Part shown: in pieces, positions 14,384 to 62,200 of the stretch
Layout of the letters: each line of letters opens with the position of its first letter
Position numbering within the stretch: position 1 is the first letter of the stretch
Notes under the pieces: generated by a model
Databases searched by the model: none
Seen by the model: the letters and a program-made list of their open reading frames with translations, nothing else
What the model was told of the DNA's origin: nothing
Made by a program: the position numbers and the translations under genes
NCBI GenBank assembly: GCA_963749445.1
Contig: CAVVMJ010000005.1
Location: 98,915-162,914 of the forward strand
Source: an uncultured bacterium
GTDB taxonomy: Bacteria > Patescibacteriota > Doudnabacteria > UBA920
Direction: 5' to 3'
DNA length: 64,000 bases

Positions 14384-14386
14384 AGT

Positions 14387-14902: not shown

Positions 14903-14903
14903 A

Positions 14904-17466: not shown

Positions 17467-17514
17467 AGGTCTATTTTAGCATAAGTCTTATAGGTCTGAT
17501 AGGATGGATAAGAC

Positions 17515-18195
17515 TTATTTGCCGTTTAATTTTTTGATAATGCCGATTAAATCTTTCATATTGTGTATAAGAAAGTCGGGATGGTGCTTTTTTAGGCGGG
17601 CGGTGGTGTTAAACCCTCCGGTTATTCCAACTGTATAGAACCCCAATTTTTTTCCGATCTCCAGTTCTTCTTCGGTGTCGCCGATAGAAATTACCTCTTT
17701 TGGTTTATAATGTTCTATTTTTACAAAAGCATGGAGTTTTTGCTCTTTGGTCCTGTCGTGCAAGTGGGAATGGATGTCGGCCGGTGTTCTTGCTAAAGTC
17801 TTTGTAATTAATTTTTTTAAACCTAATCTTTTAAGTTGTCTTTCGATGTCAGTAACAACATGGTTGCTGTAAATTATCGCATTAATGTTATTTTTGTCCA
17901 GCCACTCAAGCGCAGGCCTGACTCCGTTCCTGCTCCTTACTTTTGCCACCCTTTTTTCGTATAATTTATAGAAAAAATCCCATTGTTTAACCGCGAATTT
18001 TTCAAAATTTTCTTTTGGACAGCCGTTGGCTTCGTAAAATTTATATATGGGGACGTGGAATGTATCGCGAAATTGTTTTAAGGTTATGGGGCCGTACCCA
18101 AAAGCTTCCAAAGTTTTGCTGCTTATTTCCCCATGGGCTATTGTGTCGGCCAACAGGGTGCCGTTCCAGTCAAAGGCGATTAATTTTATAGCCAT
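17515..18195 (-). CDS. HAD-superfamily hydrolase
   Basis: IAFDWNGTLLADT and ISIGDTEEE. Confidence 0.6.
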   Translation of the reverse strand: MAIKLIAFDWNGTLLADTIAHGEISSKTLEAFGYGPITLKQFRDTFHVPIYKFYEANGCPKENFEKFAVKQWDFFYKLYEKRVAKVRSRNGVRPALEWLDKNNINAIIYSNHVVTDIERQLKRLGLKKLITKTLARTPADIHSHLHDRTKEQKLHAFVKIEHYKPKEVISIGDTEEELEIGKKLGFYTVGITGGFNTTARLKKHHPDFLIHNMKDLIGIIKKLNGK

Positions 18196-18244
18196 AAAAT
18201 TTTTCTACTAAATACTAAAGGGGCTAAATACGAAAAGTTCGACC

Positions 18245-19672: not shown

Positions 19673-19994
19673 GGTGCGCTGCCCCTGGTTGATTTTTTAG
19701 GCGATATTTTATTACCGGTTTCCCATCCTCAAGGCAAAAAAAAAATTCTAAAGTGCCGCGTTTTATAGTAATCTCGTTGCCGGGTTTTACAAGAGAGAGC
19801 TGGATTCGTATTTCTTCAGGGCTCATCCCAAGTTTTTCAGATAAGTCCGGCCGTTCAGCGCCGGGTTTTTTTATATCATGTTTTTTTAAAAGATTTTTAA
19901 CTCCCATGGTCGCGCCTTCCGCGCCAACGATTAGCCCTGCTCCGGCTACTGCGCCTGTTAAGAAATTTCTCCTGTCAATAAGTCTGTCTGGCAT
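19653..19994 (-). CDS. small hypothetical protein with twin-arginine-like N-terminus (RRNFLTGAVAGAGLIVGA); overlaps purD start by 20 nt
   Basis: 113-aa ORF on the same strand as the pur genes. Confidence 0.35.
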   Translation of the reverse strand: MPDRLIDRRNFLTGAVAGAGLIVGAEGATMGVKNLLKKHDIKKPGAERPDLSEKLGMSPEEIRIQLSLVKPGNEITIKRGTLEFFFCLEDGKPVIKYRLKNQPGAAHHEAKLI

Positions 19995-20064
19995 ATATTT
20001 AGTTGGTTAATTTTAAAAAAAATAAAAAAGTGTAGCAAAAAATTTCGTGACGAGTAAGGTTATT

Positions 20065-20661
20065 TTAAGCGCTTAATTTTTCTATCACTTCCACGTACAG
20101 ATGGTTTTCTTTTTCCTTGAGCCGCCTGTATAACGATTCCACGGTATCACCGGCTTGGATTTTTTCATACGTCCGGCCCAGCACCGGGCCAAAGTCAAAT
20201 TCCAAAGTTAAAAAATGGATGGAGGAACCGGCAAAAGTTGCTTTTTGGCTTAAAAAATTGGCAATAGCTTTGTCGGTGAGCATACCTTTGTTCCAAAGTC
20301 CGATGCTTCCGTCGGGGTTGAGTGTTGTTCCATCCTTCGCGTCCGGAATTAATCCGGGATGAAGATTTAAAATTTTATTCGGAAAAGCCAAAATTACTTC
20401 ATCAAGTATAAATTGTTTCCAACCTGCCAAACAAATGTAATCGGGATTAAGTTTTTTTAACAGCGGCAGCAGGTTTTCTTTTTTTGGGCAGATCTCAACG
20501 GCCAGATTATGTTTTTTGGCGCGTTCCAACCCCGGCGCAACAGCTTTGTCGGAAACCACGGCAACAATCTGCCCGTTAATTTTTCCGGCAGCAATTCCGT
20601 CTATAATTGCCTGCAGGTTGGTGCCGGTGCCGGCGTTGGAAATCAATACCGCAATATTCAT
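20065..20661 (-). CDS. purN: GAR transformylase
   Basis: MNIAVLISNAGTGTNLQAIID and ICLAGW...LNLHPGLIP. Confidence 0.85.
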   Translation of the reverse strand: MNIAVLISNAGTGTNLQAIIDGIAAGKINGQIVAVVSDKAVAPGLERAKKHNLAVEICPKKENLLPLLKKLNPDYICLAGWKQFILDEVILAFPNKILNLHPGLIPDAKDGTTLNPDGSIGLWNKGMLTDKAIANFLSQKATFAGSSIHFLTLEFDFGPVLGRTYEKIQAGDTVESLYRRLKEKENHLYVEVIEKLSA

Positions 20662-20765
20662 AAATTGATTTTTCTACTAAATACTAAAATAACTAAAATA
20701 TTAAACCTGTATTTCGTTATTTTTCGTATTTAGTACATTTAGTATATTTTAGTATTTAGTAGAGG

Positions 20766-22190
20766 TTAGAATAACGCGCCTTCCGGTTTTGTCTGCTGGT
20801 AGTTCGGTTCAACCACGTCTTTTTTTCGTTCGCAAATGTCTATGGGGTACTCGCCGGTAAAGCAGGAAGTGCAGAATAAGTCTTGGGGCAGCCCCGTGGA
20901 TTCTATTAATCCTTTTAAAGAAAGATAATATAAAGAAGTGGCGCCCAGGAATTTTTTAATTTCTTCCACGGATTTGGTGGCGGCTATGAGTTTTTTCTGC
21001 ACCGGCGTGTCGATGCCGTAAAAATCGGGAAATTTTACCGGCGGCGAGCTGACCAGAAAATGCACTTCGGAAGCCCCGGCCTCAAACAGCATCTTAACCA
21101 ATTGGCGCGAGGTGGTGCCTCGCACTATGGAATCATCCATCACCACAACTCTTTTGCCTTTTAAGACTTCAGGCAGGGGAGTAAGTTTTAGTTTTACGCC
21201 GAGGTCGCGGCTGTGCTGTTCGGGTTGAATGAACGTGCGGTGGATGTAGCGGTTTTTTACCAACGCCATTTCCATGGGGATGCCCGAGGCGCGGGAATAT
21301 CCGGAAGCCACGGGTACGGCGGTTTCCGGCACGGGCACGATTATATCGGCCTCTATCGGGCATTCTTCAAAAAGTTTCATTCCGCAGTTTTTGCGGACTT
21401 CGTAAACCGACTTGCCCAAAATGTTGCTGTCGGGCCGGGCAAAATAAACAAACTCAAAAATATCCACTTTGGTTTTACTCGGTTCTATTTGCGTTGATTG
21501 TAATCCATCCTTATCAATAATCACCATTTCCCCCGGGAGCACTTCGCGCAAATAATCAGCGCCGACTGTGTGGAAGGCGCAGGTTTCGGAAGCAATCACA
21601 TACCCCGATTTGTTGATGGTGCCTATAGCCAGCGGCCTTATGCCAAACGTGTCACGAACCGCTACTAAAGAATCCTTGGTTAAAATCGTCAAGGCAAAAG
21701 CTCCTGTGAACAGAGGGTAAGCCTTAATAACCGCTTCTTTGATGGATAATCCCTGTTCCAAATAGTAGGCTAAAGCTTTAGCCATAAGCGTGGAGTCGCT
21801 GCAATCGTCCGTCGCGATGTCTTTGCCTTCCAAAAAATCCTTTAGTTTTTTTACGGACGGCAAATTGCCGTTGTGCGCCAAGGCAATTAAATTATCGCCC
21901 GCCAAAATCGGCTGGGCGTGTTTAATATGCGAGCCCTCGGAAGTGGAGTAGCGGTTGTGCCCGATGGCAATGTGGCCTTTGAGGCTTGATATGGTTTCTT
22001 CGCTGTAAACATGAGTGACCAGCCCCATATTTTTGTAGCACTCAATATGGTTGCCGTCCGAGGTGGCAATGCCGGAGCTTTCCTGCCCGCGGTGCTGGAG
22101 CGCGAACAATCCGTAAAACGTCAACCTTGATACATCAAGATTCTTTCCGTAGATGCCAAAGACTCCACATTTTTCGTTAAGATTTTCCAT
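20766..22190 (-). CDS. purF: amidophosphoribosyltransferase (short N-terminal propeptide before Cys)
   Basis: KCGVFGIYG..., 474 aa. Confidence 0.9.
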   Translation of the reverse strand: MENLNEKCGVFGIYGKNLDVSRLTFYGLFALQHRGQESSGIATSDGNHIECYKNMGLVTHVYSEETISSLKGHIAIGHNRYSTSEGSHIKHAQPILAGDNLIALAHNGNLPSVKKLKDFLEGKDIATDDCSDSTLMAKALAYYLEQGLSIKEAVIKAYPLFTGAFALTILTKDSLVAVRDTFGIRPLAIGTINKSGYVIASETCAFHTVGADYLREVLPGEMVIIDKDGLQSTQIEPSKTKVDIFEFVYFARPDSNILGKSVYEVRKNCGMKLFEECPIEADIIVPVPETAVPVASGYSRASGIPMEMALVKNRYIHRTFIQPEQHSRDLGVKLKLTPLPEVLKGKRVVVMDDSIVRGTTSRQLVKMLFEAGASEVHFLVSSPPVKFPDFYGIDTPVQKKLIAATKSVEEIKKFLGATSLYYLSLKGLIESTGLPQDLFCTSCFTGEYPIDICERKKDVVEPNYQQTKPEGALF

Positions 22191-22554
22191 CTTGTAATTT
22201 TTTTTGTTTAACTTGTTCTCTTATCCAGCCTTCAGCCCACCGCAAATATTTTTCGTATTCGGTTTTGCGACTATAACGAGGCAGGTTTAGAGGGATATCC
22301 GCTCTAAAGTCTTGCGACCCTTCGTCCATTATTGAATCTTCTCCTTCCGGGGTTTCGTAGCTGATATGCGGATGGGGTTGCATGCGATAACCTACTTGCC
22401 AGCCTTCTCTCCAGCTTTCATCTTGTAAAGGATCCTTAGCGTACTCTTTGGGCATTTCCCAAGGTTCGTGACCGTTCAGCCCCGCAATAAAACCCTGATG
22501 ATAAATATCATCTAACTCAGCCTCTCTTCTCCCTAAGACTTCAAGTTCGGTCAT
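22177..22554 (-). CDS. hypothetical acidic Trp-rich protein occupying the slot between purQ and purF
   Basis: 125 aa. Overlaps the purF start by 14 nt. No PurS-like features. Confidence 0.4.
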   Translation of the reverse strand: MTELEVLGRREAELDDIYHQGFIAGLNGHEPWEMPKEYAKDPLQDESWREGWQVGYRMQPHPHISYETPEGEDSIMDEGSQDFRADIPLNLPRYSRKTEYEKYLRWAEGWIREQVKQKKLQDGKS

Positions 22555-22558
22555 TCGA

Positions 22559-23341
22559 TTATTTAAAATAGTTAACGGCGTTTTTAAAAATTTGCAAACC
22601 GGCGGCGTATTTGGGCAGGGGTTTACCGGCCCTTATCAGTTTCTCTTTTAAAAGTGGCCAGTTGGGGAGTTGGGTAAAGAACATGGCGCGCTCGGGATGG
22701 GGCATAGTGCCCAGGATTTTTCCGTTGGCTGATGTTAACATCGCAATGTCCAGGGTTGAGCCGTTGGGATTAGGCTTCAAGCTCTGATAGCCGCACATTT
22801 CTCCTTTATAGTATACCGCACCAATCATTTTTTGGCTTTTGATGAGTTTTAGCGTTTTATCATCTGCCACAAATTTGCCTTCGCCGTGGGCGATGGGCAG
22901 GGAGAGATGGCAGATTCCATTTAGCCATGGGCTAGTGTCAAGGGTCACCCTTGACACTACATCCACCCAGCGGTCGGTGTAGCGGTTGTTGTCGTTAAAG
23001 GTGAGCACGCCGGGCAACAGGCCAGCTTGGGTAAGGATTTGGAAACCGTTGCAAATTCCTATCACGAGTTTATCTTTGGCGGTAAATTCCAGTAATTGTT
23101 TTTTTAAATGGTTGTTTAATTTGTTGGCGTAAGCTTTGCCGCTGCCCAAATCATCGCCGTAAGCAAATCCTCCGGGAATGGCAAGAATTTGGTAACGCGA
23201 TAATTTTTTTGGCGAATCAATTAAGTCATTAATATGGACAATATCAGCCTCACCTCCCGCAATGTTAAAAGCTGCCGCGGTTTCTTCCTCGCAGTTTAAG
23301 CCGTAGCCGGATAAAATTATTGCTTTGGGAGAAGTTTTCAT
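22559..23341 (-). CDS. purQ: FGAM synthase glutamine amidotransferase subunit
   Basis: KAIILSGYGLNCEEETAAAF and ICNGFQIL...HGEG. Confidence 0.85.
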   Translation of the reverse strand: MKTSPKAIILSGYGLNCEEETAAAFNIAGGEADIVHINDLIDSPKKLSRYQILAIPGGFAYGDDLGSGKAYANKLNNHLKKQLLEFTAKDKLVIGICNGFQILTQAGLLPGVLTFNDNNRYTDRWVDVVSRVTLDTSPWLNGICHLSLPIAHGEGKFVADDKTLKLIKSQKMIGAVYYKGEMCGYQSLKPNPNGSTLDIAMLTSANGKILGTMPHPERAMFFTQLPNWPLLKEKLIRAGKPLPKYAAGLQIFKNAVNYFK

Positions 23342-23891
23342 GAAACTGTATTTACTAACTACTAATCCTTACTAATATACGAATGTGAATTTCTTGGAAT
23401 TAGTATATTAGTAATTAATTAGTAGTTAGTAAAGTTAGTAATCTTTAAACGTTGACCGGTACGCCCTTAATGCGTCCGCGATTTTTAAATTTACAATGAG
23501 TTTTTGATGTTTATCGGTGATTGTTAAAGTAGATTTGGTGGTGGTTTTGCCGATTTTTGCAAAAATATTTTTTCCGGCGGAGCCGGATCCCGCTCCGCGG
23601 GACATCAGGTTTTCAAAAATAGCGATGTTCTGCGACGCCACGCTGACCAAAATTCGCCCTTGGCTTTCGCTAAATAAAGCCTGATAATTTTCCTGCCAGG
23701 AGCCGGGTACATCGGCCAAGCTGATTTCTGCGCCAAGGCCGCCGCCCATAAGTTTTTTAGTTAGCGCTACAATCAGGCCGCCGCCGTTAACGCTTATGGC
23801 CGAGGCGATTAGGTTTTGTCGGTTGGCGTTGAATAAAGTTTTATATAATAAATAGTTTTTGGCGGCGTTGACTTTTGGAACTCCAACCACC

Positions 23892-23945
23892 CCGTCCGCC
23901 TTCGGCGTCCACCCCTCCTTAAAAAGGAGGGGAGACTGCATTCTG
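23892..23945. repeat. palindromic insertion element (family A: ACCACCCCGTCC...CCCCTCCTTAAAAAGGAGGGG) inside purL C-terminal region
   Basis: Encodes MQSPLLFKEGWTPKADGVV in frame. Confidence 0.65.
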
Positions 23946-24900
23946 AAGTATTCGCTCCCGCCCATTTCATCATCAGTCGTTCCCAATATATAGAGCGAAT
24001 CGCCCGGCAGTTTGGCGTCCAGCGAAACGGTTTTGGCCGCGTCCGGCACCACGCCGATGGCGGAAATCAAAAGCGTGGGCGGAATGGAAATTTTTAGCGG
24101 CTTTCCATCATCGGAAAATCCTTTAAAGTCGTTATACATACTGTCTTTGCCGGAAATAAACGGCGTGCCGTACGCGGTGGCGACGTCGTAGCAGGCGCGC
24201 GCCGCTTGTTTTAACTGCCATAAACGGCCGGGGTCTTCCGGACTGCACCAGCAAAAATTATCCAATAAAGCCAAATAATCAATGTCAGCTCCGGCGGCCA
24301 CGGCCGCGCGAACGGCCGAATCAATGGCAGAAGCGGCCATATTGTAGGGGTTAAGCTCGCTGTAAGACGGATGCAAGCCGTAAGAAAGCACCACGCCTTT
24401 TGGGGAAGTTAAAAGCGGGCGGGTAACCGTGGCCTGGGCGCTAATTTTGCCGCGGCCTTGCAGCGGTTTTAATACAGAGCCGCCTTGGACTTCGTGGTCG
24501 TATTGGGTGTTGATAAAATTGGTGGAGGCTAGGTTGGGGCGGGATAATAATTTAAAAATTAAAGATTGAAGATTGAAGGATTTGGGGATTGCCGATGATC
24601 TTGCATTTTGTGATTTGGGTTTTTGTGTTTTTTGATTTTTAATCGGTCGGCCGTTGTGTAAAAATTCCAAATCCATATCCAGCACAGTCTGTTTTTTGAA
24701 TTTAATCAGGCATCTGCCGCTATCGGTAAATTTACCGATGACCGTAGTCTCTACCCCTCTTTTTTTCATCAGCTGTTGTAATTTTGCCAAACGCTTTGGC
24801 GGCACGGCCAAAACCATTCGCTCCTGGGATTCGGAAATCCAAATTTGCCAGGGCGCGAGGCCGGGATATTTTAAGCGGAACTTTATCCAGAAAGACTTCG

Positions 24901-24951
24901 CAGCCGCCCCTCGACTTCGCTCGGGACGACCCTGTCGGGTCGTTTGCAGCT
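24901..24951. repeat. family B element (CCCCTCGACTTCGCTCGGG + CGACCCTGTCGGGTCG hairpin) inside purL middle segment
   Basis: Encodes NDPTGSSRAKSRGGC in frame. Confidence 0.65.
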
Positions 24952-26280
24952 TGGGCCATTTCGCCGACCGCTGATGATAATCCTCCGGCGCCACAGTCAG
25001 TTATTGAAGAATATAAATCTAAGTTCCGCGCTTCTTTAGCCAGTGCGTCGCTGAATTTTTTTTGCGTTATCGGGTCGCCAATCTGCACGGCCGTGGCCGG
25101 GCTGTTTTTGTCCAAGTCCTTCAGAAGCAAAAGTCGCGCCGTGGATGCCGTCGGCCCCGACTCTGCCGCCCACCATCACAATCAAATCCCCGGCTTTGGT
25201 TTGTTTAATGTGGCCGGATTTGCCGTTAATCAGCCGGGGAATTAATCCCACGGTGCCGGCAAACACCAAAGGTTTGCCGCGGAAGCGCGGGTCAAAATAT
25301 ACAAATCCGGAATTGGTGGGAATGCCGCTTTGGTTGCCGCCTGAGTTAATGCCGGAAATTACGCCGTCCATTATGCGGCGGGAGGAGAGCATCTTGTTGT
25401 CCGATGTAGCGGCATGCCTTGGCATGCCGTCATCATTAGGCACGCCACGGCGTGCCTCTACAGGGTTAGATCGATATAATTCTGTTTTATCGTTCGGGTC
25501 GGCAAAGCAAAAACCGTAAGTATTAATAATCGGTTTTGCCCCCAAACCAAACCCTAAACAGTCGCGGTTGACTCCCACAATTCCGGTAATGGCGCCGCCG
25601 AACGGGTCAAGCGCCGAAGGCGTGTTATGGGTCTCCACTTTGTGGGTGATTAAATAATCGCGGTCAAAAATTATTCCGCCAGCGTTGTCGGTAAATACGG
25701 AGACGCAGAAGTCGTTACGTTTTTTTTGTTGCCGGATGGTTTCCGTGGCCCCCTTAATGTAGGTTTTATAGATGCCTTTTTCCAGCTCGTCCATCGGGTC
25801 GGCAAAAATGGTGTGTTTGCAGTGTTCCGTCCAGGTTTGCGCCAAAGTTTCCAGTTCCACGTCCGTGGGCTTCCGGTTTAGTTTGTTAAAATATTCGCGG
25901 ATGACTTTTAATTCTTCCAGCCCCAACGCCAGCGGCCCGCGCCTTTTCGCAGAAACTGCGAGTGCAGCCGAAGCAGTCCCGTTATTTTTTGATGGGATTG
26001 CTTCGTCGGATGCACTCCTCGCAATTTCCGGTTTTTTTTGGCGTTCCTCTATCCCCAATTTCCCCAGCTTTATCAGCTCCTCATCCGCAATATTCAAATC
26101 CACCCTGCTGACTTTGGCCGAGGCGGCAAGCTTGACTTTGGGCGCGACCATATCCATGCCGCCGTCTTTTTTAAAATCATCAAAACTTTTTACTGCCGCG
26201 CGTTGGATGAGCGGGTTGTAAAGGCTATTGGCGATTTTTTGGATATCCGCGGCTTGCCCGCCGAAGCCTTGGCGTAGGCG

Positions 26281-26337
26281 GGGGCTTCCCCTCCTTTTTA
26301 AGGAGGGGTGTCCTGCGGAGCGGGACGGGGTGGTTGG
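26281..26337. repeat. family A element in opposite orientation inside purL N-terminal region
   Basis: Encodes TPTTPSRSAGHPSLKRRGSP in frame. ccccTCCTTTTTAAGGAgggg palindrome. Confidence 0.65.
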
Positions 26338-26757
26338 AGTATAAAAAGAAATAAAAAAGACCTGAGACGAATAAACATCCTGCCCCGGCTTGAATTTTAT
26401 TTTCGCCCCGTCTTGCAAAGTTTCTTTGGCCGTGCGGCCAATGTTGTCCGTGACCCCGGGCAGAAAACCGATTTCCACGGCAAAATTAAAATTCCGCGGC
26501 GCCTTTAAAGCGGTGTCCGCGGATTCTGCAAGAGGATTGGCCAACAGCGTTTTGGCTTTTTGGATTTGTTTTTGGTTTAGGCGCGCGTCAATCGTATAGC
26601 AGTCCGCCAGATACACCGCCCCCAGTTTGTTTTTTAGCCCCAGCGCCTCAAACTGCTTTTTTTTGACTTTGGCCCGGGCGTCGGGGATGGTGGACTTTAC
26701 GTAAATGCGATGCATTGAGAGATTTGAGATTTATGATTTTAGATTTCAGATTGGAAT

Positions 26758-29284: not shown

Positions 29285-29926
29285 ATGAGGATTTTTGTGG
29301 GGATTCCGTTGTCGGAGGAGTTGAGGGGGCGGGTTTTGGAGTGGGAGGGACAACATCGATTCGACCTCTCTGCCCTTCGGCTGCACTCGGGGCATCTCCC
29401 CTCGCCAGGGGAGAAGGGGAACACCGTACGATGGGTTGAGCCCAAGAATTTGCATGTGACGCTGGTGCCGCCCCTCGACTTCGCTCGGGGCCTGCGGCCG
29501 TCTGATATCGAGGGGATCATCAAAAAGTTGGAAACAGTTAAGCATCAGCCTTTTGAAATAAGGTTTGATAAGATATCGTTCGGGCCGAATGTTAGGGAGC
29601 CGAGGATGGTTTGGGCAAGCGGAAACGCGGGAGAGGAAATTAAGAAATTGAAGAAATTGATTGAAATTGCGTTAAGCGGCATTGTTGATAATTCGCGCGG
29701 CCGCGCGTTTTATCAACACGTTACGCTGGCGAGGATAAAAAACCCTCATCCGCCGCTCGATGCATCGCGGCACCTTCTCCCAGGGGGAGAAGGCGGGAAC
29801 ATCCAAGCGGTTGACTGGCGGATGAAAGTAGAAAAGTTTGTGCTTTATGAGTCGCATTTGTTGCCGCAGGGGGCGGATTACGAGGTTTTGGCCGAGTTTT
29901 TGCTACAGCCTTTTACTAAATGCTAA
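29285..29926 (+). CDS. thpR: 2H-phosphoesterase family RNA 2',3'-cyclic phosphodiesterase / 2'-5' RNA ligase (LigT/ThpR) with three in-frame element insertions
   Basis: MRIFVGIPL... Two H-x-T-x motifs, LHVTL and QHVTL. 213 aa versus about 175-190 typical. Confidence 0.7.
   Translation: MRIFVGIPLSEELRGRVLEWEGQHRFDLSALRLHSGHLPSPGEKGNTVRWVEPKNLHVTLVPPLDFARGLRPSDIEGIIKKLETVKHQPFEIRFDKISFGPNVREPRMVWASGNAGEEIKKLKKLIEIALSGIVDNSRGRAFYQHVTLARIKNPHPPLDASRHLLPGGEGGNIQAVDWRMKVEKFVLYESHLLPQGADYEVLAEFLLQPFTKC
29393..29420. repeat. family C palindromic element (TCTCCCCTCGCCAGGGGAGAAGGGG) in thpR
   Basis: Encodes HLPSPGEKGN in frame. Confidence 0.55.
29471..29490. repeat. family B core CCCCTCGACTTCGCTCGGGG in thpR
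   Basis: Encodes PPLDFARG in frame. Confidence 0.6.
29774..29793. repeat. family C element (CTTCTCCCAGGGGGAGAAGG) in thpR
   Basis: Encodes LLPGGEGG in frame. Confidence 0.55.
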
Positions 29927-34242: not shown

Positions 34243-34315
34243 TTTTGCGATGTTGATTTAACGCTCGGCCGCGCGTAAAATCAACAAAAGAGATGAAATC
34301 CGCCAGATAAATTTT

Positions 34316-34888
34316 ATGAAAAAAGCAGTCGTGATTGTCATCGTAATTCTCATCGTCGCGCTCGCGGGATTTGTTTATTATCGCAACCGCGAAGGAAAGT
34401 TAATGTCGTATTCCAACCCTTCATCTAATCAAATTAACACTACCACGCCTATGACTATTTCGAGCCCGGCTTTTGCGCAAGGCCAAGCTATCCCAAAAAA
34501 ATATACCTGCGACGATGCGGGCATCAACCCGCCGCTTAATATCAGTAGCGTGCCCCAGGAAGCGCAAAGTTTGGTATTGATTATGGATGATCCGGACGCG
34601 CCGGGCGGTACCTGGACGCATTGGATTGTCTGGAATATTTTGCCGTCCGTAACGTCAATCGCCGAGAATTCTGTTCCACCCGGAGCCATAGTCGGCCAGG
34701 GCAGCTCGGGACAAAACGTTTACGGCGGGCCTTGTCCGCCGAGCGGCATGCACCGTTATTATTTCCGTTTGTACGCCTTGCCGCTGAAATTGAGCATTTC
34801 TTCTTTTTCCGACGTTGCGGCTTTGCGCAAAGCCATGGACGGATACATTATTGCCGAGGCGGAATTGATGGGGACATATTCCAGATGA
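34316..34888 (+). CDS. YbhB/YbcL (PEBP) family protein with N-terminal membrane anchor
   Basis: DDPDAPGGTWTHWIVWNI and GPCPPSGMHRYYF. Confidence 0.7.
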   Translation: MKKAVVIVIVILIVALAGFVYYRNREGKLMSYSNPSSNQINTTTPMTISSPAFAQGQAIPKKYTCDDAGINPPLNISSVPQEAQSLVLIMDDPDAPGGTWTHWIVWNILPSVTSIAENSVPPGAIVGQGSSGQNVYGGPCPPSGMHRYYFRLYALPLKLSISSFSDVAALRKAMDGYIIAEAELMGTYSR

Positions 34889-35004: not shown

Positions 35005-36891
35005 ATGAAAGAATTGAAAAAAAGGATTGGCTTGTCTAACCAAAATATTGAAGGCGGGGGTTTACCCAGTACCACTTTTGGTCAGACCAAAAGTGGTACT
35101 GGGTTTAGTTTGATTGAGGTCGCGGTGACGCTGGCGGTGTTCGCAATGCTCGCCACCGCGGTTTTGGGCGTAGTGGCCGCGCTTAACCAGGCGGTCAAAA
35201 CCGCCCGCCAGTCAACCCTGGTGTCGTCTTTAGCCGACAATTATATGGAAATTGTCCACAATATGCCGTACAGCCAAATCGGCACGGTGCACGGCAATCC
35301 GGTCGGCACCTTGCCTGACTGCAACGGCACGCCGCCGACTTGTCCAGGCGCTCTTTTGGCCGCGATAGGCGGGCAGAATTATAAAATTTATTACGAAGTT
35401 ACTTACATTGACGATCCGGCCGACGGCGTGGCGCCGGCGGATCCGGCGCCGGCGGATTACAAGCAGGTCAAACTGAGCGTGCAAAACGCCCAGACCAACG
35501 GGGTGACCAATTTTGTGACCACGGTGGTGCCCAAGGGCCTGGAGAATACCAACAACGCCGGCGCCTTGTCCATTGGTGTCATCAATTATTTAGGACAGTC
35601 CGTGCCCGGCGCCACCATAACCATCCAGTCGCCGCCGACTAATCCGGTTATGAACCTGTCCCGCCTGACCGACGCAAACGGCAAGTGGACAGAAGTCGGC
35701 TTGCCGGCCGGGGCGAATAATTACCGCGTGACCGCGACCAAATCCGGCTATTCCACGGACCAGACCTATCCGATAACCGGCCAAAATCCCAATCCGACCA
35801 ATCCGGACGCCACGGTACTTAACGGCCACGTTACGTCGCTGACTTTTGGCATTGATGCGTTGGCCAATTTAACCGTCAACACCGTGGACCAATATTGCGG
35901 GCCCAAAAGCGGGGTCGGCATTAACATTTCCGGCGCCAAAATTATCGGCACTAATCCCAGTGTCTATAAATTTAACCAGAATTTTACTTCCTCCGCCGGC
36001 GCCGTGGTTTTGAACAATCTTGAATGGGACACTTACACGCCGGTGCTGCTAACCGGCCAGGGTTACGTGATTGCCGGAACTTCGCCGGTGCAAAAAATTG
36101 ACGTTTTGCCCGGCACCGCGCAGACTTTTACCATGGTGCTGAATTCCGTGACTACGGGCAATACCCTGCTAGTCATAGTCAAAGACGCGGCCACCCAGAC
36201 GGCCCAGGAAGGCGCGGCCGTGACTTTGACAAACGGCGTCCAGACTTACGGGCCGTACTATACCGGCGGCAGCGTTTGGATCCAGACCGACTGGAGCGGC
36301 GGGCCGGGGCAGGCTTTGTTTGACGGCGGAGGCAGCGCTAAGTATTGGACCGATGACGGCAACATCAACAACAATAATCCCACGGGACAAATCCAGCTGC
36401 GCAAAACCGGCAGCAGCTACGCGCCCTCGGGTTTTGTGGAATCATCCACTTATGATACCGGCACGGCCTCCAGCCAATACACCACTTTGACCTGGCAGCC
36501 CCTGGCCCAGAGCCCGAACACGACTTTGCGGTTCCAGCTGGCGGCCAATAATGACAACGCCACCTGGAATTACGTGGGTCCGGACGGCGCCACCAGTACT
36601 TATTACACGGTTTCGGGCACCAACATCAGCTCGGCGTTAAACAATAACCGTTATGTCCGCTATAAAACTTATTTATCCACCACGAACAGCAGTTCCACGC
36701 CGGTGCTGACTTCGCTGAATATTAATTACGTTTCCGGTTGCCGCACGCCCGGCCAGGTGCTGTTTAACGACAGTATGAGCTCAGGCGGCAATTACAAACT
36801 GACCGTGACTATGCCCGGCTACAGCACCTCCACCGTAAGCAATATGACGGTGAGCGGCGACCAGATCATTCAAGTGTTGGTGTCACCATGA
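35005..36891 (+). CDS. large type IV pilin-like protein (class III signal peptide G|FSLIEV) with long beta-rich extracellular region
   Basis: GFSLIEVAVTLAVFAMLA, 628 aa. Confidence 0.6.
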   Translation: MKELKKRIGLSNQNIEGGGLPSTTFGQTKSGTGFSLIEVAVTLAVFAMLATAVLGVVAALNQAVKTARQSTLVSSLADNYMEIVHNMPYSQIGTVHGNPVGTLPDCNGTPPTCPGALLAAIGGQNYKIYYEVTYIDDPADGVAPADPAPADYKQVKLSVQNAQTNGVTNFVTTVVPKGLENTNNAGALSIGVINYLGQSVPGATITIQSPPTNPVMNLSRLTDANGKWTEVGLPAGANNYRVTATKSGYSTDQTYPITGQNPNPTNPDATVLNGHVTSLTFGIDALANLTVNTVDQYCGPKSGVGINISGAKIIGTNPSVYKFNQNFTSSAGAVVLNNLEWDTYTPVLLTGQGYVIAGTSPVQKIDVLPGTAQTFTMVLNSVTTGNTLLVIVKDAATQTAQEGAAVTLTNGVQTYGPYYTGGSVWIQTDWSGGPGQALFDGGGSAKYWTDDGNINNNNPTGQIQLRKTGSSYAPSGFVESSTYDTGTASSQYTTLTWQPLAQSPNTTLRFQLAANNDNATWNYVGPDGATSTYYTVSGTNISSALNNNRYVRYKTYLSTTNSSSTPVLTSLNINYVSGCRTPGQVLFNDSMSSGGNYKLTVTMPGYSTSTVSNMTVSGDQIIQVLVSP

Positions 36892-51080: not shown

Positions 51081-51175
51081 CCCTTTGATTCTTTTCGGGT
51101 TTGAAATAACCAAAAAACCACTGTGATACGGTGGTTTTTTGATTTAAACTAGATCTGTTGGGTCTGTTAACTAAA

Positions 51176-51304
51176 TCGGTTGGTGGATAAATCAAAATCG
51201 CGGGACTGGTGCATATATCTGTTGGTGGATAAATCAAAATCGCGGGACTGGTGCATATATCTGTTGGTGGATAAATCAAAATCGCCTGTAGCTACAGGCG
51301 ATTT
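51176..51304. repeat. 42-bp direct repeats x2.6 (iteron-like), ending in a hairpin
   Basis: Unit CTGTTGGTGGATAAATCAAAATCGCGGGACTGGTGCATATAT. Third copy is truncated into aaaatcgcctgtagctacaggcgatttt. Confidence 0.7.
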
Positions 51305-51469
51305 TGTGTATTTTTTCGTTACTAATTTCGTTTTTGAAATTAGTTTTATTTTTATCGCAATCGGTAAATTATGAATGCCTTATAAACACTAGCGTTCATC
51401 GATAATTTTAACGTTTAGCGAACGAATTTACCAACCAAAATGGTTAACAGTCCCGATCTGTTGCGTTTG

Positions 51470-51575
51470 CGCGTACGTACGCGTATATTAAACAAATGAT
51501 ATTTTAGCGAAAAGCTGTTTCCGGATAAATTGTAAATTTGTTGCATTTATTCGTACGTACGAATAAATGCAACAA
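51470..51575. promoter_or_regulatory. palindromes CGCGTACGTACGCG (51470-51483) and the 38-bp perfect palindrome TTGTTGCATTTATTCGTAC|GTACGAATAAATGCAACAA (51538-51575)
   Basis: Read directly. A related 20-bp palindrome ATACGCGTACGTACGCGTAT lies at 52155-52174 on the other side of gene 51593..52126. Confidence 0.5.
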
Positions 51576-51592
51576 AGCCCGCGGTAAATAAT

Positions 51593-52126
51593 TCAGCCTG
51601 ACCCGGTGAGTTTAAAGTGTTTCAACAAATCCTTGTCGTCGTCCAACTCCTCCAGCCTGCCTATGCGGATATAATCAATCAGTCCTGTACTTTTCAGGTA
51701 CGTTATCGCCTCGCGGTTCAGCGGGTAAGGGGTCAGGTAGACGCTGGCCTGGAGTTTGAAGAATTCACCGGATTTTAGCAGCCTTCTGAGTTTGTCGCGC
51801 TTGTCGTTGGCATCGCGGGGGATATCAAACATAATCATCCGCCATTTGCCGTCCCACGTTTGTTTTTTGGGCAGCCATGCTTTGGCCATAAGCAGTTCCA
51901 GCTGGCCTTTGCGGGTCAAGCGCAAAAATTTTTGTCCCGCCGCGGTTTTTGTGATGTTTACATAGCCTTTGCGGCGGAGCCTGTAGGCGGTTTGGCGGTA
52001 TTGTTCGTAAGTGCCCGGCTGGCGTTTTTGCTCCCATTGCCGTTTGGATGAAAAAATGGACGTGAAGCCGTCTACAAAGGCAAATAACAGAAAACTTTGG
52101 GGATAGTGTCTTAAACTTCGCGGCAT
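51593..52126 (-). CDS. hypothetical protein, wHTH-like N-terminal half plus Cas2/PaaX-C-like C-terminal half
   Basis: RQTAYRLRRKGYVNITKTAAGQKFLRLTRKGQLEL. C-terminal WRMIMFDIPRDANDKRDKLRRLLKSGEFFKLQASVYLTPYP fits the strand-DIP-basic helix-strand pattern of Cas2/PaaX C-domains. Confidence 0.4.
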   Translation of the reverse strand: MPRSLRHYPQSFLLFAFVDGFTSIFSSKRQWEQKRQPGTYEQYRQTAYRLRRKGYVNITKTAAGQKFLRLTRKGQLELLMAKAWLPKKQTWDGKWRMIMFDIPRDANDKRDKLRRLLKSGEFFKLQASVYLTPYPLNREAITYLKSTGLIDYIRIGRLEELDDDKDLLKHFKLTGSG

Positions 52127-52371
52127 ATTTTTTGATTTATCCTATGTGTTTAATATACGCGTACGTACGCGTATTGTCAACAGATTATGTTTGGTGGAAA
52201 GCGCGGTTTTTGATTTTTGATGTGGCAACAGTTGTTTAGTTTATGCGTACGTGCGTGTAAACGCAACAAGGGAAAGCGATTGATAAAACATTCCTGATTT
52301 TGACGGCCGTCAAAATCAGGAATGTAATAAAAATCGAGAATGAAATCGGGAAATCTTGCCTGTCGGCGGAA

Positions 52372-56294: not shown

Positions 56295-59200
56295 GTGGAC
56301 GAGAATTTGAAAGAAAATTTTGATTCGTTCTTAAGCCTCGCGGAAGCGAGCAAGCTAACAGGGTACCACCAGGATTACCTTGGTTTTTTGTGCCGCACCG
56401 GCAAGCTCCAGGGATTTAAAATTGGCAGGAACTGGACGACGACCAAACAAGCCTTGGATGAGTTCATTAAAAACTATAAAAACGGGGTTAGCGAAATCGT
56501 TGATGAAACAGGCAGGAAGATCCCCGTTAAGGTAGAACGCCTAGCCCCTCAAGTTGTCATCGCGGATTTGCCCGCGGGGCAACCTCCAATTGCGGCGGGT
56601 CTTGTTTTTTCGCAGGGCGCAACTCCACAGCCGCAGGAAGTTTTGCCCGCTGCGCTTAATTCCAGTTTAGAGCTTAGGCACCTCCGCAGAGACGTCATTG
56701 ATGAAATTGACAAAAAGGTGCAGAACTTGTCCGCTAGCGTGGAAAAGATTGAAACCCAAACTCAGGAACAGGCGAAACAGTTAGAGGCAAATAAACAACA
56801 AATACTGGCAGTTGTCCCGGTGGCGGAAACGGCGCCGCAAGTACCGTCAACCGCGGCAGCGATAAACAATTTTGCCGAAGAAGACGAGTACGTCAAAAAA
56901 GAACGGCAGCGATTCAGCAACAAGTTTGCTTCCAATTTTGATTTCGGAACCGCGGATATTCACCCGACTACGCCAAGGCTTCGTCGGGCAAGCGCGGAAC
57001 CAGAACGCGGAACATACGCGGATCAATCCAAGTTCGCGCTGGGGAAGGAAAAAGTCAAACAACTTTACGGAAGCTTTACAAAAAAGAGCCGCATAGATTT
57101 TAACCGGGTCGGCGCGTACGCCTTGGTTGCAATAATTTTGGCGCTGTTTATGGGATCGGTGTTCTGGAGAAATTTGTTTAATAATCTGTCCGGCAATCAG
57201 CGGCCGCAGGAAATGAAAATTGTTTACCAGAACAATAATAGCGGCAAGCAGCCAGCGGTAAGCAATCAGCAGCCCGGCGCGGGTCAGGGCGGAACCACCA
57301 TCGTTAACAAAACCGTCAACCAGCTGCTCGGCTTTTCCGACGCGGACTTGTACAGCCTGATAGATAACCGTTTAAACCAATATTTGGCCGAAGGAAGATT
57401 CAAAGGACCCAAAGGGGACCAGGGGCTGCCGGGGCTGCCGGGCGGAGCCACCTACGTAGCGTCAAACCCCGCGACCGGCTTTTCCGGCGGCAGCATTGGC
57501 GGGACAACCTATCTTTCTTCCCAGGATTTTGCCACAAATAACATTACGGTTAACATCAGCCTTACGGACAACGGCACGGCGGTTTTTAACGGGTACGCGA
57601 CTTTTAACGGGAACACAAACTTAAGCGGCACTACGACCATTGCGAATTTGAACGTTGCCAATATTAATCCGAATTTTACCCAGGGCAGCGTGGTGTTCCA
57701 GGGATTAAACGGGCTGGCGCAGGACAACGCGAATTTTTATTGGGACAGCGTAAATCATCGCCTTGGCATAGGCACCACCACCCCGGAATTCGCTTTGGAT
57801 GTTAATGGCGTCGTGAACGCGCAGGCCTTGTACGTTAACGGCACGCCGTATATCGGCAGCCAGTGGATTTCCACCAGCACGGGAATTTATTTTGCTTCCG
57901 GCAATGTGGGTATTGGCACGACTTCGGCTTCAAGCACGATGCTAACTGTGGCGGGCGACACATCGGTATTCGGCAATTTGGCGGTGGCCGGGACATCGTC
58001 GCTGGCTTCGGCAATTGTTGGCAACCTCACAGTTACGGGCACATCAACACTTGATAGGACGTATACGATAGAATTGGCCGTATCGGACTTATCAACGCTG
58101 GCTACAACTTCAGTAACCAGTTTGGCGGTATCGGGAATCTCGTCACTCGCGACCACCACCATCAGCAACCTTACTTTAACCCAGCCGCTGTCTTTGTCGT
58201 CAGGGGGCTTAGGGTTTGATTCGTCGGCTATTCAAAAGGGCGGGCTGTTGGCCGGAACGGGCAACGGAAGTTTTGGCATCCAGCCGGTCGGCAGCGACGG
58301 CTTGTGCTTGCTGGCTTCTTCCACCGCGCCGTCGGGAATGGCCTGGACTGATTGCGCCGTGGCGGCCAATGCCATTACTTCGTTAAACGGTCTGACCAAT
58401 CCGGTGCAGACTTTTGCCACGGGCAGCGACATCAACATCGGTTTGAATATAACCTCCAGCGGATCCACTCACACTTTTACGCCGACTTTTACCGGCACCT
58501 TGGCCGCCAATCGCTTAAACAGCAACGTGGTGCAGGGGATTACGAATGACACAAACATTACCGGCTCAATTTTAAACCAGGTTTTGACTTTGGGCTGGAA
58601 CGGGCAACTTTCCGCGGCGCGCGGCGGCACTGGCACCAACACTTTGGCTTCCTTGACCGTCGGCAGCAACTTAAACATCAGCGGAGGACAGAATGTCCTT
58701 ATCGGCACTTCCACCCAGATTACGTTATCAAACAATCCGTCCTTTACTTCTATCACCGCCACTGCTTCTTCTTCCTTGGGCAATGCCACGGCCACGGCTT
58801 TTTCCGCCACGACCTTTAACGGCAACACCCTGACTGCCGGCTCCGGTACTCTGACTTTGAATAACAACACTTTGTCTTTGCAGGGCGGCAACACTACACT
58901 GGTTGGCATCAATTCCATCACAAGTTCAACGATAGCCACCTCCACCGTTGGCACTTCCACCATCTCCGGCTTTTTGGCCTTAAACTCCACCACCACCAAT
59001 TCCAACATCAGCGGTTCAACCGTCAACAACGTCACCATCCAGGGCAACAGCAATACCTTAACCCTGCTGGGTACTTCTTCCATTGACCAATCCGTCACCA
59101 CCACCTCCACTCCGACCTTTGCCGGCCTCACCGTCAACGGCCCCGCCTCGGCACAATCTTTGATGGTGACGGGCAACTTAACCGCCACGGGTTCGACTAC

Positions 59201-62200
59201 GCTCGCCGCCTTGACGGCCGGCACGTTGGCCGTAACAGGTTCGACTACGCTCACTGTCTTAAATACGACCGGCGCCGTAACCTTTGCCTCTCCCACTACC
59301 ATCATCAACACCGTTACTTATCTCTGGCCGTCTATCCAGGGCGCGGCCAATACTTTTTTGATGGATAACGGTTCAGGAACGTTATCCTGGTCTGCCGCTT
59401 CCACCACCCTGTCCGGTTACGCCTGGATGCTGGGCGGCAACACCTTAACAGCTACCGGCACCTTTGGCACGCTCTCCAACAATGACTTAAACATCATTAC
59501 CAACTCCACCACTAGGATGACCATCCTCTCCGGCGGCAACGTCGGCATCGGCTCGTCCGCCCCAGCTTCCCTGCTGGATGTTTTTGGGACGGCCCAACTC
59601 CGAGGCGCGTCAAACCAAATTGGATTGTATGTCAATTCGTCAGGGAATGTTGGGGTGGGGACGACTTCTCCGGTTGCCCTGTTCAGCGTCAGCGGCAATG
59701 AATTCATCGCCGGATCTTCCACCATAACCAACCTTAACCAAGCCCTGCCCGTGCGTTCTACCGCGGGCGGCGCCCTGTTCAACGGCGCCGTTGCTTTGGG
59801 CTCTTCCGATGTCACCGGCATCCTGCCTATCCTTAACGGCGGCACCGGAGCTTCCACTCTGGCCGGAGCCAACATCGTCACGGCCAACGCCTCAGCCGGC
59901 CAGGTCCCTTACTTTACCGCCCCGACCACCCAAGCCGGCTCTGCCAACTTCCTTTGGAACAATACCAGCAACCTGCTGACCGTCAACGGCACCATTAACG
60001 CCACCACCTCCAACTTTACCAACCTGAACGCTTCCTCCACGGTTTTGACCAACGCCACGACCACGGGCCAATCGGTTCTTTTGGGACAAACCAACGGCAA
60101 GCTGCTGGCTTTAGACCAAAACGGAATCATCATCTCCACTTCCACCGCCTACCAGACCGCCTTGAGCAATCCCGATACCGGCACGGGAGCCTCGCCGCAA
60201 ATCGCTTATTGGTCAAGCGCGACCGGACTGACGGGCGCGTCCGGCTTCCTATGGGACAACTCAAATACCAGAATGGTGGTCAACGGCACGATCAACGCCA
60301 GCAGCACCAACTTTACCAATGCCACCACCAGCCAACTGTTTGTCACCGGTTCTACTAACGGCAAATTAGCCGCTTTGGACGCTAATGGAATGCTCATCGG
60401 TACTTCCACCGCTTACCAAGTGGCCGGCTCTTACCTTACCACCATCGGCAGCGGCTCTTCCTCCACCATCCCTTATTTCACGGCTACGGCCAACACTTTG
60501 CAGGGGTCTAACAACTTATCCTTCAACGGTTCAAATTTAGTTTTGAACGGAACGATTTACGCCACTTCCTCCAACTTTACCAACGCCACTACATCCCAAT
60601 TATTCGTAACGGGACAGACGGGTAAGTTGGCCGCGCTTGACGCCAACGGGATGCTGATAGCGACTTCCACCAGCTATCAGACCGCCCTGACCAATCCCGA
60701 TACCGGCACGGGAGCCTCGCCGCAAATCGCTTATTGGTCAAGCGCGACCGGACTGACGGGCGCGTCCGGCTTCCTTTGGGACAACTCAAATACCAGAATG
60801 GTGGTCAACGGCACCATCAACGCCACCTCCTCCAACTTCACCAACTTAAACGCTTCCTCCACCGTCTTAACCAACTCTACCACCACAAACCAGTCCGTCT
60901 TCTCCGCCATTACCGGCCCCACCTTCCTGGCCTTAGACTCCAACCATATCCTAATGGCCACTTCCACCCCGGTGTTAACGGTTACCGGCTCCGGTTCCCT
61001 CACTTCCACCGGCGGCACCTCCCCGAATATCGCCTTGGTCACCCTGGCTAACAACGCCGTCCTCTTTGGCCAAGGCAGCGCCACCATCGGCACTTCCACC
61101 AACTTTTCCTGGCTTAACGGCCAAAACCTCTTTAGCGTCAACGGCACCATCAACGCCACCTCCTCGCTGTTCACCAACGCCACTTCCAGCAACCTGGCCG
61201 CCACCTCCTTAACCTCCGCCCTGCCGGTCAGGAGCACCACCGCCGGCTACCTCTACAACGGCGCGATTAACCTTAGCTCCGGCTCCTCTGACATTACTGG
61301 CACTCTGGCCATCGGCAGCGGCGGCACCGGCGCCACCACTCTGGCCGGCGCCAACATCGTCACGGCCAACGCCTCAGCCGGCCAGGTCCCCTTACTTTAC
61401 CGCCCCGACCACCCAAGCCGGCAGTGCCAACTTCCTTTGGAACAATACTTCCAACCTGTTAACCATCAACGGCACCATCAACGCCAGCACCTCCAACTTT
61501 ACCAACCTGAACGCCTCCTCCACGGTTTTGACCAACGCGACAACGACAGGCCAGCAGTTCATTCTGGGGCAGACTAACGGGAAACTATTGGCCCTTGACC
61601 AAAACGGCATGGTCATTTCCACTTCTACCGCCTACATCACCACCGCCAACGTCTCCGGCGCCTCGCCCCAGGTGGCCGTGTTTGCCGGAGCCAATACGGT
61701 TAACGGATACAGCGGCTTCCTTTGGGACAACTCAAATACCAGAATGGTGGTCAACGGCACCATCAACGCCACCTCCTCCAACTTCACCAACTTAAACGCT
61801 TCCTCCACCGTCTTAACCAACTCTACCACCACAAACCAGTCCGTCTTCTCCGCCATTACCGGCCCCACCTTCCTGGCCTTAGACTCCAACCATATCCTAA
61901 TGGCCACTTCCACCCCGGTGTTAACGGTTACCGGCTCCGGTTCCCTCACTTCCACCGGCGGCACCTCCCCGAATATCGCCTTGGTCACCCTGGCTAACAA
62001 CGCCGTCCTCTTTGGCCAAGGCAGCGCGACCATCGGCACTTCCACCAACTTTTCCTGGCTTAACGGCTCTAATCTCTTTAGCGTCAACGGCACCATCAAC
62101 GCCACCTCCTCGCTGTTCACCAACTCTACCACCACAAACCAGTCCGTCTTCTCCGCCATTACCGGCCCCACCTTCCTGGCTTTAGACTCCAACCATATCC

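Follow-up and report, generated by a model that had tools for sequence, protein, structure and literature searches.

Is a module of direct repeats, an AT-rich stretch, nested palindromes and the gene of a small DNA-binding protein a replication origin, or is it a repressor gene surrounded by its own operators? The question arises from a minus-strand gene of 177 codons (51593-52126) and its flanks in a 64,000-nt stretch of contig CAVVMJ010000005.1, which belongs to a metagenome-assembled genome (MAG) of an uncultured member of the Doudnabacteria (Patescibacteriota); we call this whole stretch the window and give all coordinates as window positions. A sequence-only reading had favored a plasmid- or phage-type origin, or the remnant of an integrated element, and had named the operators of a PaaX-like repressor as its closing alternative. 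That alternative proved to be the best supported: a promoter lies inside one of the palindromes, the spacing of the palindromic arms is PaaX-like, and the layout recurs throughout the protein family. As judged from its sequence, the module is probably a self-contained, autoregulated transcription-factor cassette on the chromosome of a Doudnabacteria-like bacterium of the Candidate Phyla Radiation (CPR).

The 177-aa product is a two-domain protein, a winged helix-turn-helix (wHTH) joined to a Cas2-like domain without an effector domain, and is termed here mini-PaaX. Both halves are as had been anticipated, with a winged helix in the N-terminal half and a Cas2/PaaX-like fold in the C-terminal half: the central Cas2-like domain of PaaX (PF20803) matches the protein with E=1.5e-17 in Pfam, and an AlphaFold2 model built on 40 homologues (predicted local distance difference test score 80.7) contains a complete wHTH (approximately residues 8-70), a linker helix (72-83) and a Cas2-like ferredoxin-fold domain (approximately 95-158) of beta-alpha-beta-beta-alpha-beta topology. 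When this model was compared with the PDB by Foldseek, the top match was E. coli PaaX (8a39, E 6e-6, 171 aligned columns), followed by Rv0674 (3kfw) and then by a run of type II-A Cas2 structures; 5zyf, 5xvn and 6qxt are among the Cas2-like matches. The protein also carries motifs of both families, namely WDGKW, the PaaX signature, and FDIP and LQASVY, which correspond to the Cas2 signatures FD(I/M)P and QxSVY, with FDIP aligning to the FDMP of Cas2. Likeness to PaaX and to Cas2 was thus found; Rep families, which had also been considered, gave no match in Pfam, NCBIfam or PHROGs.

The profile scores delimit both likenesses. The PaaX equivalog TIGR02277 scores 33.8 bits on the protein, below its NCBIfam cutoff of 264.55, and Pfam detected no PaaX_C effector domain in a chain that ends at residue 177. 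The cas2 model TIGR01573 scores 25.3 against a cutoff of 24.5 and covers only model positions 3-39 of 96; the Cas2 models of PADLOC gave partial matches only, and Cas2 models span only residues 96-131 of mini-PaaX. Some sources label members of the family as Cas2. Asp101, within FDIP, is invariant in an alignment of 40 sequences (A1) and in another of 54 sequences with 26-53% identity (A5), and W95, R110 and S128 are also invariant among the 54, with Q126 nearly so. At the corresponding Cas2 positions, the Asp has been lost from E. coli PaaX (LLLSE-G) as well as from Rv0674 (IVTSIG), and E. coli PaaX is also without the Gln (ALAPSL).

Four related palindromes of about 40 bp flank the gene, two on each side, and not the three of CGTACG type that had been counted from the letters. 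Upstream lie a proximal putative operator (O-u1, 52144-52185, reading TGTTGACAATACGCGTACGTACGCGTATATTAAACA on the minus strand) and, 86 bp away from start to start, a distal one (O-u2, 52230-52270, TGTTTAGTTTATGCGTACGTGCGTGTAAACGCAACA); downstream, 16 bp past the stop codon, lies a proximal putative operator (O-d1, 51537-51576, TTTGTTGCATTTATTCGTACGTACGAATAAATGCAACAAA), which is a perfect palindrome as described, though of 40 bp and not 38, and 80 bp from it, again from start to start, a distal one (O-d2, 51456-51497, ATCTGTTGCGTTTGCGCGTACGTACGCGTATATTAAACAAAT), which a repeat search matched to O-u1 at 86%. The CGCGTACGTACGCG palindrome noted earlier is present at 51470-51483. All four, at 36-40 bp, fit the pattern TGTTG-N26-CAACA with a CG-rich palindromic center and the core CGTACGTACG. 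Across the window this pattern has nine matches where 2.3 are expected, six of the nine having CG-rich palindromic cores, and CGTACGTACG occurs five times at up to one mismatch where 0.99 is expected, a number reached in none of 100 shuffles; four of the five lie in the module, among them every exact copy (three), the other one having a single mismatch.

The proximal upstream palindrome is at the same time a promoter. A sigma-70-like TTGACA-17-TATATT (11/12 in a promoter scan) lies inside O-u1, with a perfect -35 element (52180-52175) in one arm and the -10 element (52157-52152) in the other, such that the CG-rich core is exactly the 17-nt promoter spacer. The site bound by PaaX in E. coli is TGATTC(N27)GAATCA, and at Px, the promoter of its own gene, PaaX acts as a repressor through steric hindrance (review PMC9493321). 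The unusually wide spacing is therefore common to the PaaX site and to the TGTTG-N26-CAACA palindromes of the window.

The layout recurs through the family. In GTDB genomes, a search with the family alignment recovered 80 loci, nearly all of them in MAGs of CPR/Patescibacteria (Doudnabacteria, Staskawiczbacteria, Moraniibacteriota and others), some of which hold several mini-PaaX paralogues; together with the window, these gave 81 loci that we scanned for near-perfect palindromes of 30-58 bp, with a loop of 0-2, within approximately 100 bp of the start and/or stop codon. Such palindromes are present in 62 of the 81 loci (37 upstream, 47 downstream, 22 on both sides), whereas the background of 0.127 per kb in the same loci predicts approximately 3-4 by chance, an enrichment of about 15-fold beside genes of this family. 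Identity between the upstream and the downstream palindrome averages 83% where both belong to one locus, and 39% between loci. It is the center that is conserved, with C at -3 in 90% and usually CGGCCG (the commonest cores being ACGGCCGT, GCGGCCGC and ACGATCGT) and an A/T tract at -10 to -6 flanking it, and the outer arms are locus-specific. Promoters scoring at least 8/12 lie inside 12 of the 37 upstream palindromes, compared with 8.9% of random background windows. No gene family is common to more than five of the 81 loci as a neighbor: the gene and its own palindromes are the whole conserved unit.

The two parts of the palindrome also diverge with different parts of the protein. In partial Mantel tests on 58 loci, divergence of the outer arms tracked that of the wHTH when the Cas2-like domain was controlled (r=0.10, p=0.002) but not that of the Cas2-like domain once the wHTH was controlled, and divergence of the core tracked that of the Cas2-like domain with the wHTH controlled (r=0.18, p=0.002) but not that of the wHTH. 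This double dissociation is consistent with, though not proof of, a wHTH that reads the arms and a Cas2-like dimer that sits on the core.

The family is large. An exhaustive profile search with a threshold of E<=1e-10 recovered 3,043 clusters at 50% identity; among the best 150 representatives listed, almost every one has approximately 160-240 aa, and in these searches the family was found almost only in CPR bacteria. A look-up of the 177-aa protein itself came back empty. In the literature that we searched, no paper links PaaX with Cas2 or with CPR bacteria, and a 2026 survey places the PaaX architecture only rarely outside phenylacetate clusters in complete genomes; the operator-gene-operator layout of the family therefore appears undescribed. 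Upstream of family genes in two loci from different MAGs, by approximately 670 bp, we also observed similar 32-bp palindromes GGTMAAAGTCCARTTAGAAYTGGACTTTKACC (L026, 3148-3179; L027, 3211-3242) that are unrelated to the CGGCCG-type operators.

Two orthologues, L001 (70% identity) and L082 (72%, the only further close relative returned by a single-protein metagenome scan), have the gene order of the window, in which a 610-aa prenyltransferase-like gene is followed by a membrane protein of approximately 180 aa (189 aa in the window), mini-PaaX and a convergent DsbA gene; the locus is therefore chromosomal and vertically inherited. Upstream of the gene, each of the two carries a single promoter-operator, in which TTGACA-17-TATTAT lies within TTTGTTGACAAAAC(G/A)CGTGGCCACG..., and downstream of it a single operator; the outer TGTTGA arms are those of the window, and the core differs (CGTGGCCACG versus CGTACGTACG), and in both the palindromes are followed by separate, canonical terminators. 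Some 2.2 kb upstream of its orthologue, L082 has a second and weaker mini-PaaX-like match (1660-1803, 40% over 48 aa), perhaps a paralogue or a fragment. The closest relative of all, L081 (78% identity), shares the CGTACGTACG core, and the promoter-operator O-u1 is identical at 38 of 39 positions while the coding sequence is visibly more substituted; here homology to the window begins and ends at the palindromes, and the flanks are unrelated.

The genes of the window are ordinary chromosomal ones (a purine cluster, isochorismatase, glycerate kinase-like, PEBP, LigT, DsbA and secreted Ig-domain proteins), and among the open reading frames (ORFs) scanned there were no dnaA, rep, integrase, partition or mobilization genes and no paa genes. 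A PaaX_M gene with a same-strand 177-aa neighbor adjoins DsbA on contig P0124 as well. The DsbA adjacency in L101 was considered as a functional link and rejected: the adjacent PaaX_M gene there belongs to a different subfamily, so the adjacency is no evidence of such a link. Among the contexts of DsbA orthologues searched for an empty site, P0123 and P0131 are without the gene, in neighborhoods that are rearranged and not cleanly empty. A few kb from DsbA orthologues, on the P0124 contig and at L100 7740-8681, we observed Y1_Tnp (IS200/IS605-type) genes of unusual length (229 and 313 aa), the one on P0124 lying between two PaaX_M genes.

We propose that a mini-PaaX homodimer would bind each of the 36-40-bp palindromes, its two winged helices reading the outer TGTTG(A/C) half-sites, whose centers are about 31 bp (three helical turns) apart, and its Cas2-like dimer lying over the CG-rich center. 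A dimer on 52144-52185 would block RNA polymerase and so repress its own gene, as reported for E. coli PaaX at Px, and the operator or operators just past the stop codon would probably serve in looping cooperation or as a roadblock insulating the cassette from transcription in or out. At distances of 17 and 22 kb, two candidate trans operators share this geometry and may add a small regulon. One (34251-34286, plus strand, TGTTGATTTAACGCTCGGCCGCGCGTAAAATCAACA) contains TTGATT-17-TAAAAT, and 30 bp separate its end from the start of a PEBP-family gene (34316-34888); the other (29683-29718, plus strand, TGTTGATAATTCGCGCGGCCGCGCGTTTTATCAACA) falls in frame within the ORF of a LigT-like 2H-phosphoesterase, immediately ahead of the second HxT motif. 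Both are 36-bp palindromes with TGTTGAT...ATCAACA arms and a CGGCCG center, identical to each other at 28 of 36 positions, and could be bound by mini-PaaX of the window or by a close paralogue. They bracket a 4.5-kb block that encodes HAD hydrolase, GT2, PD-(D/E)XK, YgjP-like, GGACT, MazE-like and acylphosphatase proteins.

Several points weigh against an autoregulated repressor of this kind. The entire mechanism is derived from sequence, the Mantel correlations are small and control only partly for shared ancestry, and a recognizable sigma-70 promoter is present in only about one-third of the upstream palindromes. With no ligand domain, and with its own flanks as the best-conserved targets, the protein has no obvious physiological input. 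The strict conservation of the Asp, Gln and Ser would not be needed for a purely structural dimerization, and hints at an additional and possibly enzymatic function. In addition, the 78% relative L081 lies in an unrelated context and the relatives at 70-72% are syntenic, which simple vertical inheritance does not predict.

This pattern in L081 is the main observation that favors movement at the level of the cassette. The palindrome-gene-palindrome unit might then be a selfish or mobile element, loosely similar to REP-associated tyrosine transposases (RAYTs; REP, repetitive extragenic palindromic), in which a Cas2-type active site acts on hairpin or cruciform palindromes to move, copy or maintain the unit. 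Besides homology that is restricted to the palindromes and the gene, such an element would account for palindromes at both ends, for several paralogues per genome, each with its own palindrome, for the lack of a conserved neighbor gene, and for an Asp101, Q126 and S128 that are (nearly) invariant here when E. coli PaaX has lost the first two and Rv0674 the Asp; Y1 transposase genes moreover occur near family members on two related contigs. However, synteny is stable in L001 and L082, and the DsbA-adjacent PaaX_M gene of P0124 suggests the same; outside the paired palindromes of 22 loci there was no target-site duplication beyond the null; copies of a given palindrome are few and not widely dispersed; geometry and promoter overlap are as a PaaX-type operator predicts; and a nuclease activity of the Cas2-like domain is hypothetical in mini-PaaX. 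We consider a mobile cassette unlikely.

A related reading, to which we give about the same low weight, is that the wHTH-Cas2 proteins of approximately 175 aa in CPR bacteria are catalytically competent Cas2-type enzymes, tethered through the winged helix to the long palindromes that bracket their genes, in which case the units would be autonomous cassettes, selfish or self-maintaining, and the proteins an ancestral-like link between Cas2/VapD nucleases and PaaX. The (near-)invariance of the Cas2 Asp, Gln and Ser at 26% identity, the absence of conserved partner genes and the L081 homology that ends exactly at the palindromes, in another genomic context, are what leave room for it.

The tandem array, its hairpin and the AT-rich stretch fall outside the conserved system, which we interpret as a repressor and its operators. 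The 2.6 direct copies of a 42-bp unit reported before are recovered by Tandem Repeats Finder (TRF; 51175-51285, 98% matches), and with the repeat search they resolve into three in-register units (51160-51285, plus strand), the second and third identical and the first 83% identical to these. Each unit contains an operator-like half-site, (A)TCTGTTGG, a 13-mer, GGATAAATCAAAA, that exactly matches the 5' leader of the mini-PaaX gene, and a minus-strand, 8/9 DnaA-box-like TTATCCACC; a scan of the window found the iteron core only at this array. In an independent Logan assembly (run ERR10755942), a contig matches the window without a difference up to the end of unit 1 and stops within unit 2, the usual behavior of short-read assemblers at repeats; the array is therefore real, its copy number being that of the present assembly alone. 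The array does end in a hairpin, which is intrinsic-terminator-like (51277-51316, plus strand): perfect 15+15 arms (51277-51306), the 5' arm being the end of the last unit, are followed by the T-run TGTATTTTTT. The AT-rich stretch and its palindrome are likewise as described, with 26% GC at 51300-51399 and a ACTAATTTC/GAAATTAGT hairpin at 51321-51344.

Array, hairpin and AT-rich stretch all lie in a lineage-specific segment of 294 bp (51161-51454). Imperfect 25-bp inverted repeats, GGGWCTGTTAAC, bound this segment (51160-51184 and 51430-51454, 20/25), and a 9-bp direct repeat, GATCTGTTG, flanks it (51152-51160 and 51455-51463); when the segment is removed, O-d2 stands directly after the bidirectional terminator-like hairpin of the convergent DsbA gene (51108-51144), which forms the left edge of the intergenic region. 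Inverted-repeat ends and a flanking direct repeat are, on the face of the sequence, an insertion signature like that of a miniature inverted-repeat transposable element, and the 64-kb window holds no second copy of the terminal repeat. The duplicated 9-mer is also the outer half-site of the operator, and units 2 and 3 contain a motif like it, so a local duplication of operator and leader may account for the segment as well. The intergenic stretch between downstream operator and DsbA cannot be aligned among the window, L001 and L082, and TRF found no tandem array of this kind beside the other 81 family loci (82 with the window). Most simply, the segment arose by insertion, or by duplication in place, and took up sequence resembling the operator and the leader. 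Downstream of its operator, L001 has a pair of inverted repeats of its own, approximately 20 bp each and about 125 bp apart (4603-4765, AAGGCTGTTACCGAATGG / CCATTCGGCAACAGCC), which also carries a CTGTT motif and cannot be aligned with the 294-bp segment.

Could the array nevertheless act on the repressor, either as a small RNA, through a minus-strand transcript containing three UUUUGAUUUAUCC that is complementary to the mini-PaaX 5' leader, or as a decoy, through DNA half-sites that titrate the protein? The exact 13-nt match (GGATAAATCAAAA) between each unit and the leader would fit such a role, as would the terminator-like hairpin on the plus strand, the bidirectional terminator at 51108-51144, a weak minus-strand promoter (51434-51405) and fold energies for the region that lie well below those of shuffled controls. 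The 13-mer is explained equally well, though, if operator and leader were duplicated; the promoter scores only 9/12, and promoter-like sites are no more numerous in the region than in shuffles; the fold z-scores are driven by the palindromes themselves, which dominate the RNA folds of the array region and make them not diagnostic; Rfam returned nothing at its gathering threshold (nor did the window contain a tRNA); and the array is not conserved in the syntenic relatives. A functional small RNA or decoy is accordingly improbable, somewhat more so than a mobile cassette.

Still less probable is a generic structural role for the palindromes, for example as intrinsic terminators or REP-like intergenic repeats, that has nothing to do with the adjacent protein. 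The downstream palindrome does occupy a 3' untranslated position and is predicted to form a strong RNA hairpin, and a 60-bp palindrome with other arms follows the stop codon of the upstream gene. But the upstream copy overlaps a promoter, which is not the position of a terminator; the palindromes have no U-run, and L001 and L082 have separate canonical terminators after them; upstream and downstream copies are alike within a locus and unlike between loci; and the palindromes are enriched about 15-fold specifically beside this family and co-vary with the protein. The 60-bp palindrome itself (52277-52336, near-perfect, with 30-nt arms and four mismatches) lies between the stop codon of the 189-aa gene, from which it is 36 bp away, and O-u2, and combines a family-typical GACGGCCGTC center with arms (TTCCTGATTTT) unlike those of the module's own putative operators; it may be an operator for a mini-PaaX paralogue encoded elsewhere, or a terminator.

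The origin proposed at the outset, with the 42-bp repeats as iterons, the AT-rich stretch as unwinding element and the wHTH protein as initiator of a plasmid- or phage-type origin or its integrated remnant, fares worst and is largely refuted. In its favor are three direct repeats beside a stretch of 26% GC and the gene of a DNA-binding protein, and each unit does hold the DnaA-box-like TTATCCACC and the operator-like half-site TCTGTTGG. The protein, however, is PaaX/Cas2-like and matches no Rep family; tblastn found no match to it in 72,556 plasmids or 50,697 phages, blastn found none to the region in plasmid and phage collections, and the iteron core is absent from viral contigs. The array is missing from the syntenic L001 and L082 and from the other family loci (82 examined with the window), the context is chromosomal, without integrase, partition or mobilization genes among the ORFs scanned, there is no perfect DnaA box in the 64 kb, and GC skew follows gene orientation with no origin-type switch. 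A CRISPR remnant was rejected: the window ORFs that were scanned include no cas1, TRF placed no CRISPR-like array closer than 900 bp to the gene at any of 82 loci, and no neighbor is conserved. A defense system, for which PADLOC gave partial Cas2 matches only, was rejected as well.

Elsewhere in the window, several features stand apart from this module. A long run of de novo purine biosynthesis genes occupies 12995-26715 on the minus strand (adenylosuccinate lyase, SAICAR synthetase, AIR synthase, GAR synthetase, amidophosphoribosyltransferase and parts of FGAM synthase); many CPR bacteria are reported without this pathway. Positions 1-3000, at 31-34% GC against approximately 50% elsewhere, include the gene of a DUF7670 protein (2545-3066) and may be foreign DNA. 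An ORF of 1760 aa (56295-61577) has only an N-terminal HTH_17 match, and from about 58 kb to 64000 the GC skew is strongly negative (-0.18 to -0.36) at 56-57% GC. Finally, a near-perfect palindrome of 47 bp, TTTACCCAGTACCACTTTTGGTCAGACCAAAAGTGGTACTGGGTTTA, unrelated in sequence to the mini-PaaX operators, lies at 35061-35107 inside the 5' end of a 628-aa ORF (35005-36891).

CPR/Patescibacteria have tiny genomes, and to our knowledge their transcriptional regulation has hardly been studied by experiment. Each member of the mini-PaaX family appears to carry its own operator on both flanks, and pairs of protein and operator can therefore be read from sequence, which makes them a ready dataset for a winged-helix recognition code and for predicting regulons in uncultured organisms. 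The family has kept the PaaX signature, the operator geometry and the catalytic-site motifs of Cas2, and so marks an intermediate stage between Cas2, a protein of CRISPR adaptation, and the PaaX repressors; a testable question that follows is whether its Cas2-like domain recognizes the conserved CG core or has remained able to cleave nucleic acid. The locus is also a caution for genome scanning: a wHTH gene beside direct repeats and an AT-rich stretch did not here amount to an origin. With the feature of the window taken as a repressor and its putative operators, the cassette architecture, the pairing of proteins and operators in CPR bacteria and the retained Cas2 active-site residues merit follow-up by specialists.

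How does the cassette compare with known systems? With RAYT/REP elements it has in common a single gene bracketed by two presumed cognate palindromes, with few further copies elsewhere, but mini-PaaX has no HUH/Y1 domain, its palindromes are few where REPs number hundreds, one of them overlaps a promoter, and no sign of mobility was seen. The iteron origins of plasmids (Rep_3 / RepA) likewise combine direct repeats and an AT-rich stretch with the gene of a wHTH protein beside them, but the locus differs from these in protein family, in having about three 42-bp repeats that are not conserved, and in its syntenic chromosomal context. Type II-A Cas2 (for example 5zyf and 6qxf) has the same ferredoxin-like fold, the FD(I/M)P of strand beta1 with an Asp at the catalytic position, and QxSVY; unlike Cas2, mini-PaaX is fused to a wHTH and carries the PaaX-specific WDGKW, it has no cas1 or CRISPR array in the window or as a conserved neighbor, and Cas2 models match residues 96-131 only. 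Rv0674 of M. tuberculosis, an uncharacterized PaaX-like protein and the second-best structural match (3kfw), likewise combines wHTH and PaaX_M outside a paa context, but it is longer (247 aa), has extra C-terminal helices, lacks the Asp and is only weakly similar in sequence (E 0.27).

The nearest comparison is PaaX of E. coli and Pseudomonas (8a39; TIGR02277; PF07848 + PF20803 + PF08223), a phenylacetyl-CoA-responsive repressor. Mini-PaaX fails membership in this group on three counts, its effector domain, its equivalog score and its paa context: it is approximately 140 aa shorter and has no C-terminal effector domain, scores far below the cutoff (33.8 versus 264.55 bits), and has no paa genes among the window ORFs scanned and no conserved neighbor. 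It further differs in keeping the Cas2 Asp, Gln and Ser, of which E. coli PaaX is without the first two, in having a second cognate putative operator directly past the stop codon, and in belonging to a large family, with several paralogues in some MAGs, that our searches found almost only in CPR bacteria. What the two have in common is a wHTH followed by a central Cas2-like domain with WDGKW, which makes PaaX the best structural match; a split inverted-repeat operator, TGATTC-N27-GAATCA in E. coli and, as predicted, TGTTG-N26-CAACA here; and a repressor site placed on the gene's own promoter, which PaaX is reported to occlude and which in mini-PaaX lies, by its sequence, within the putative operator.

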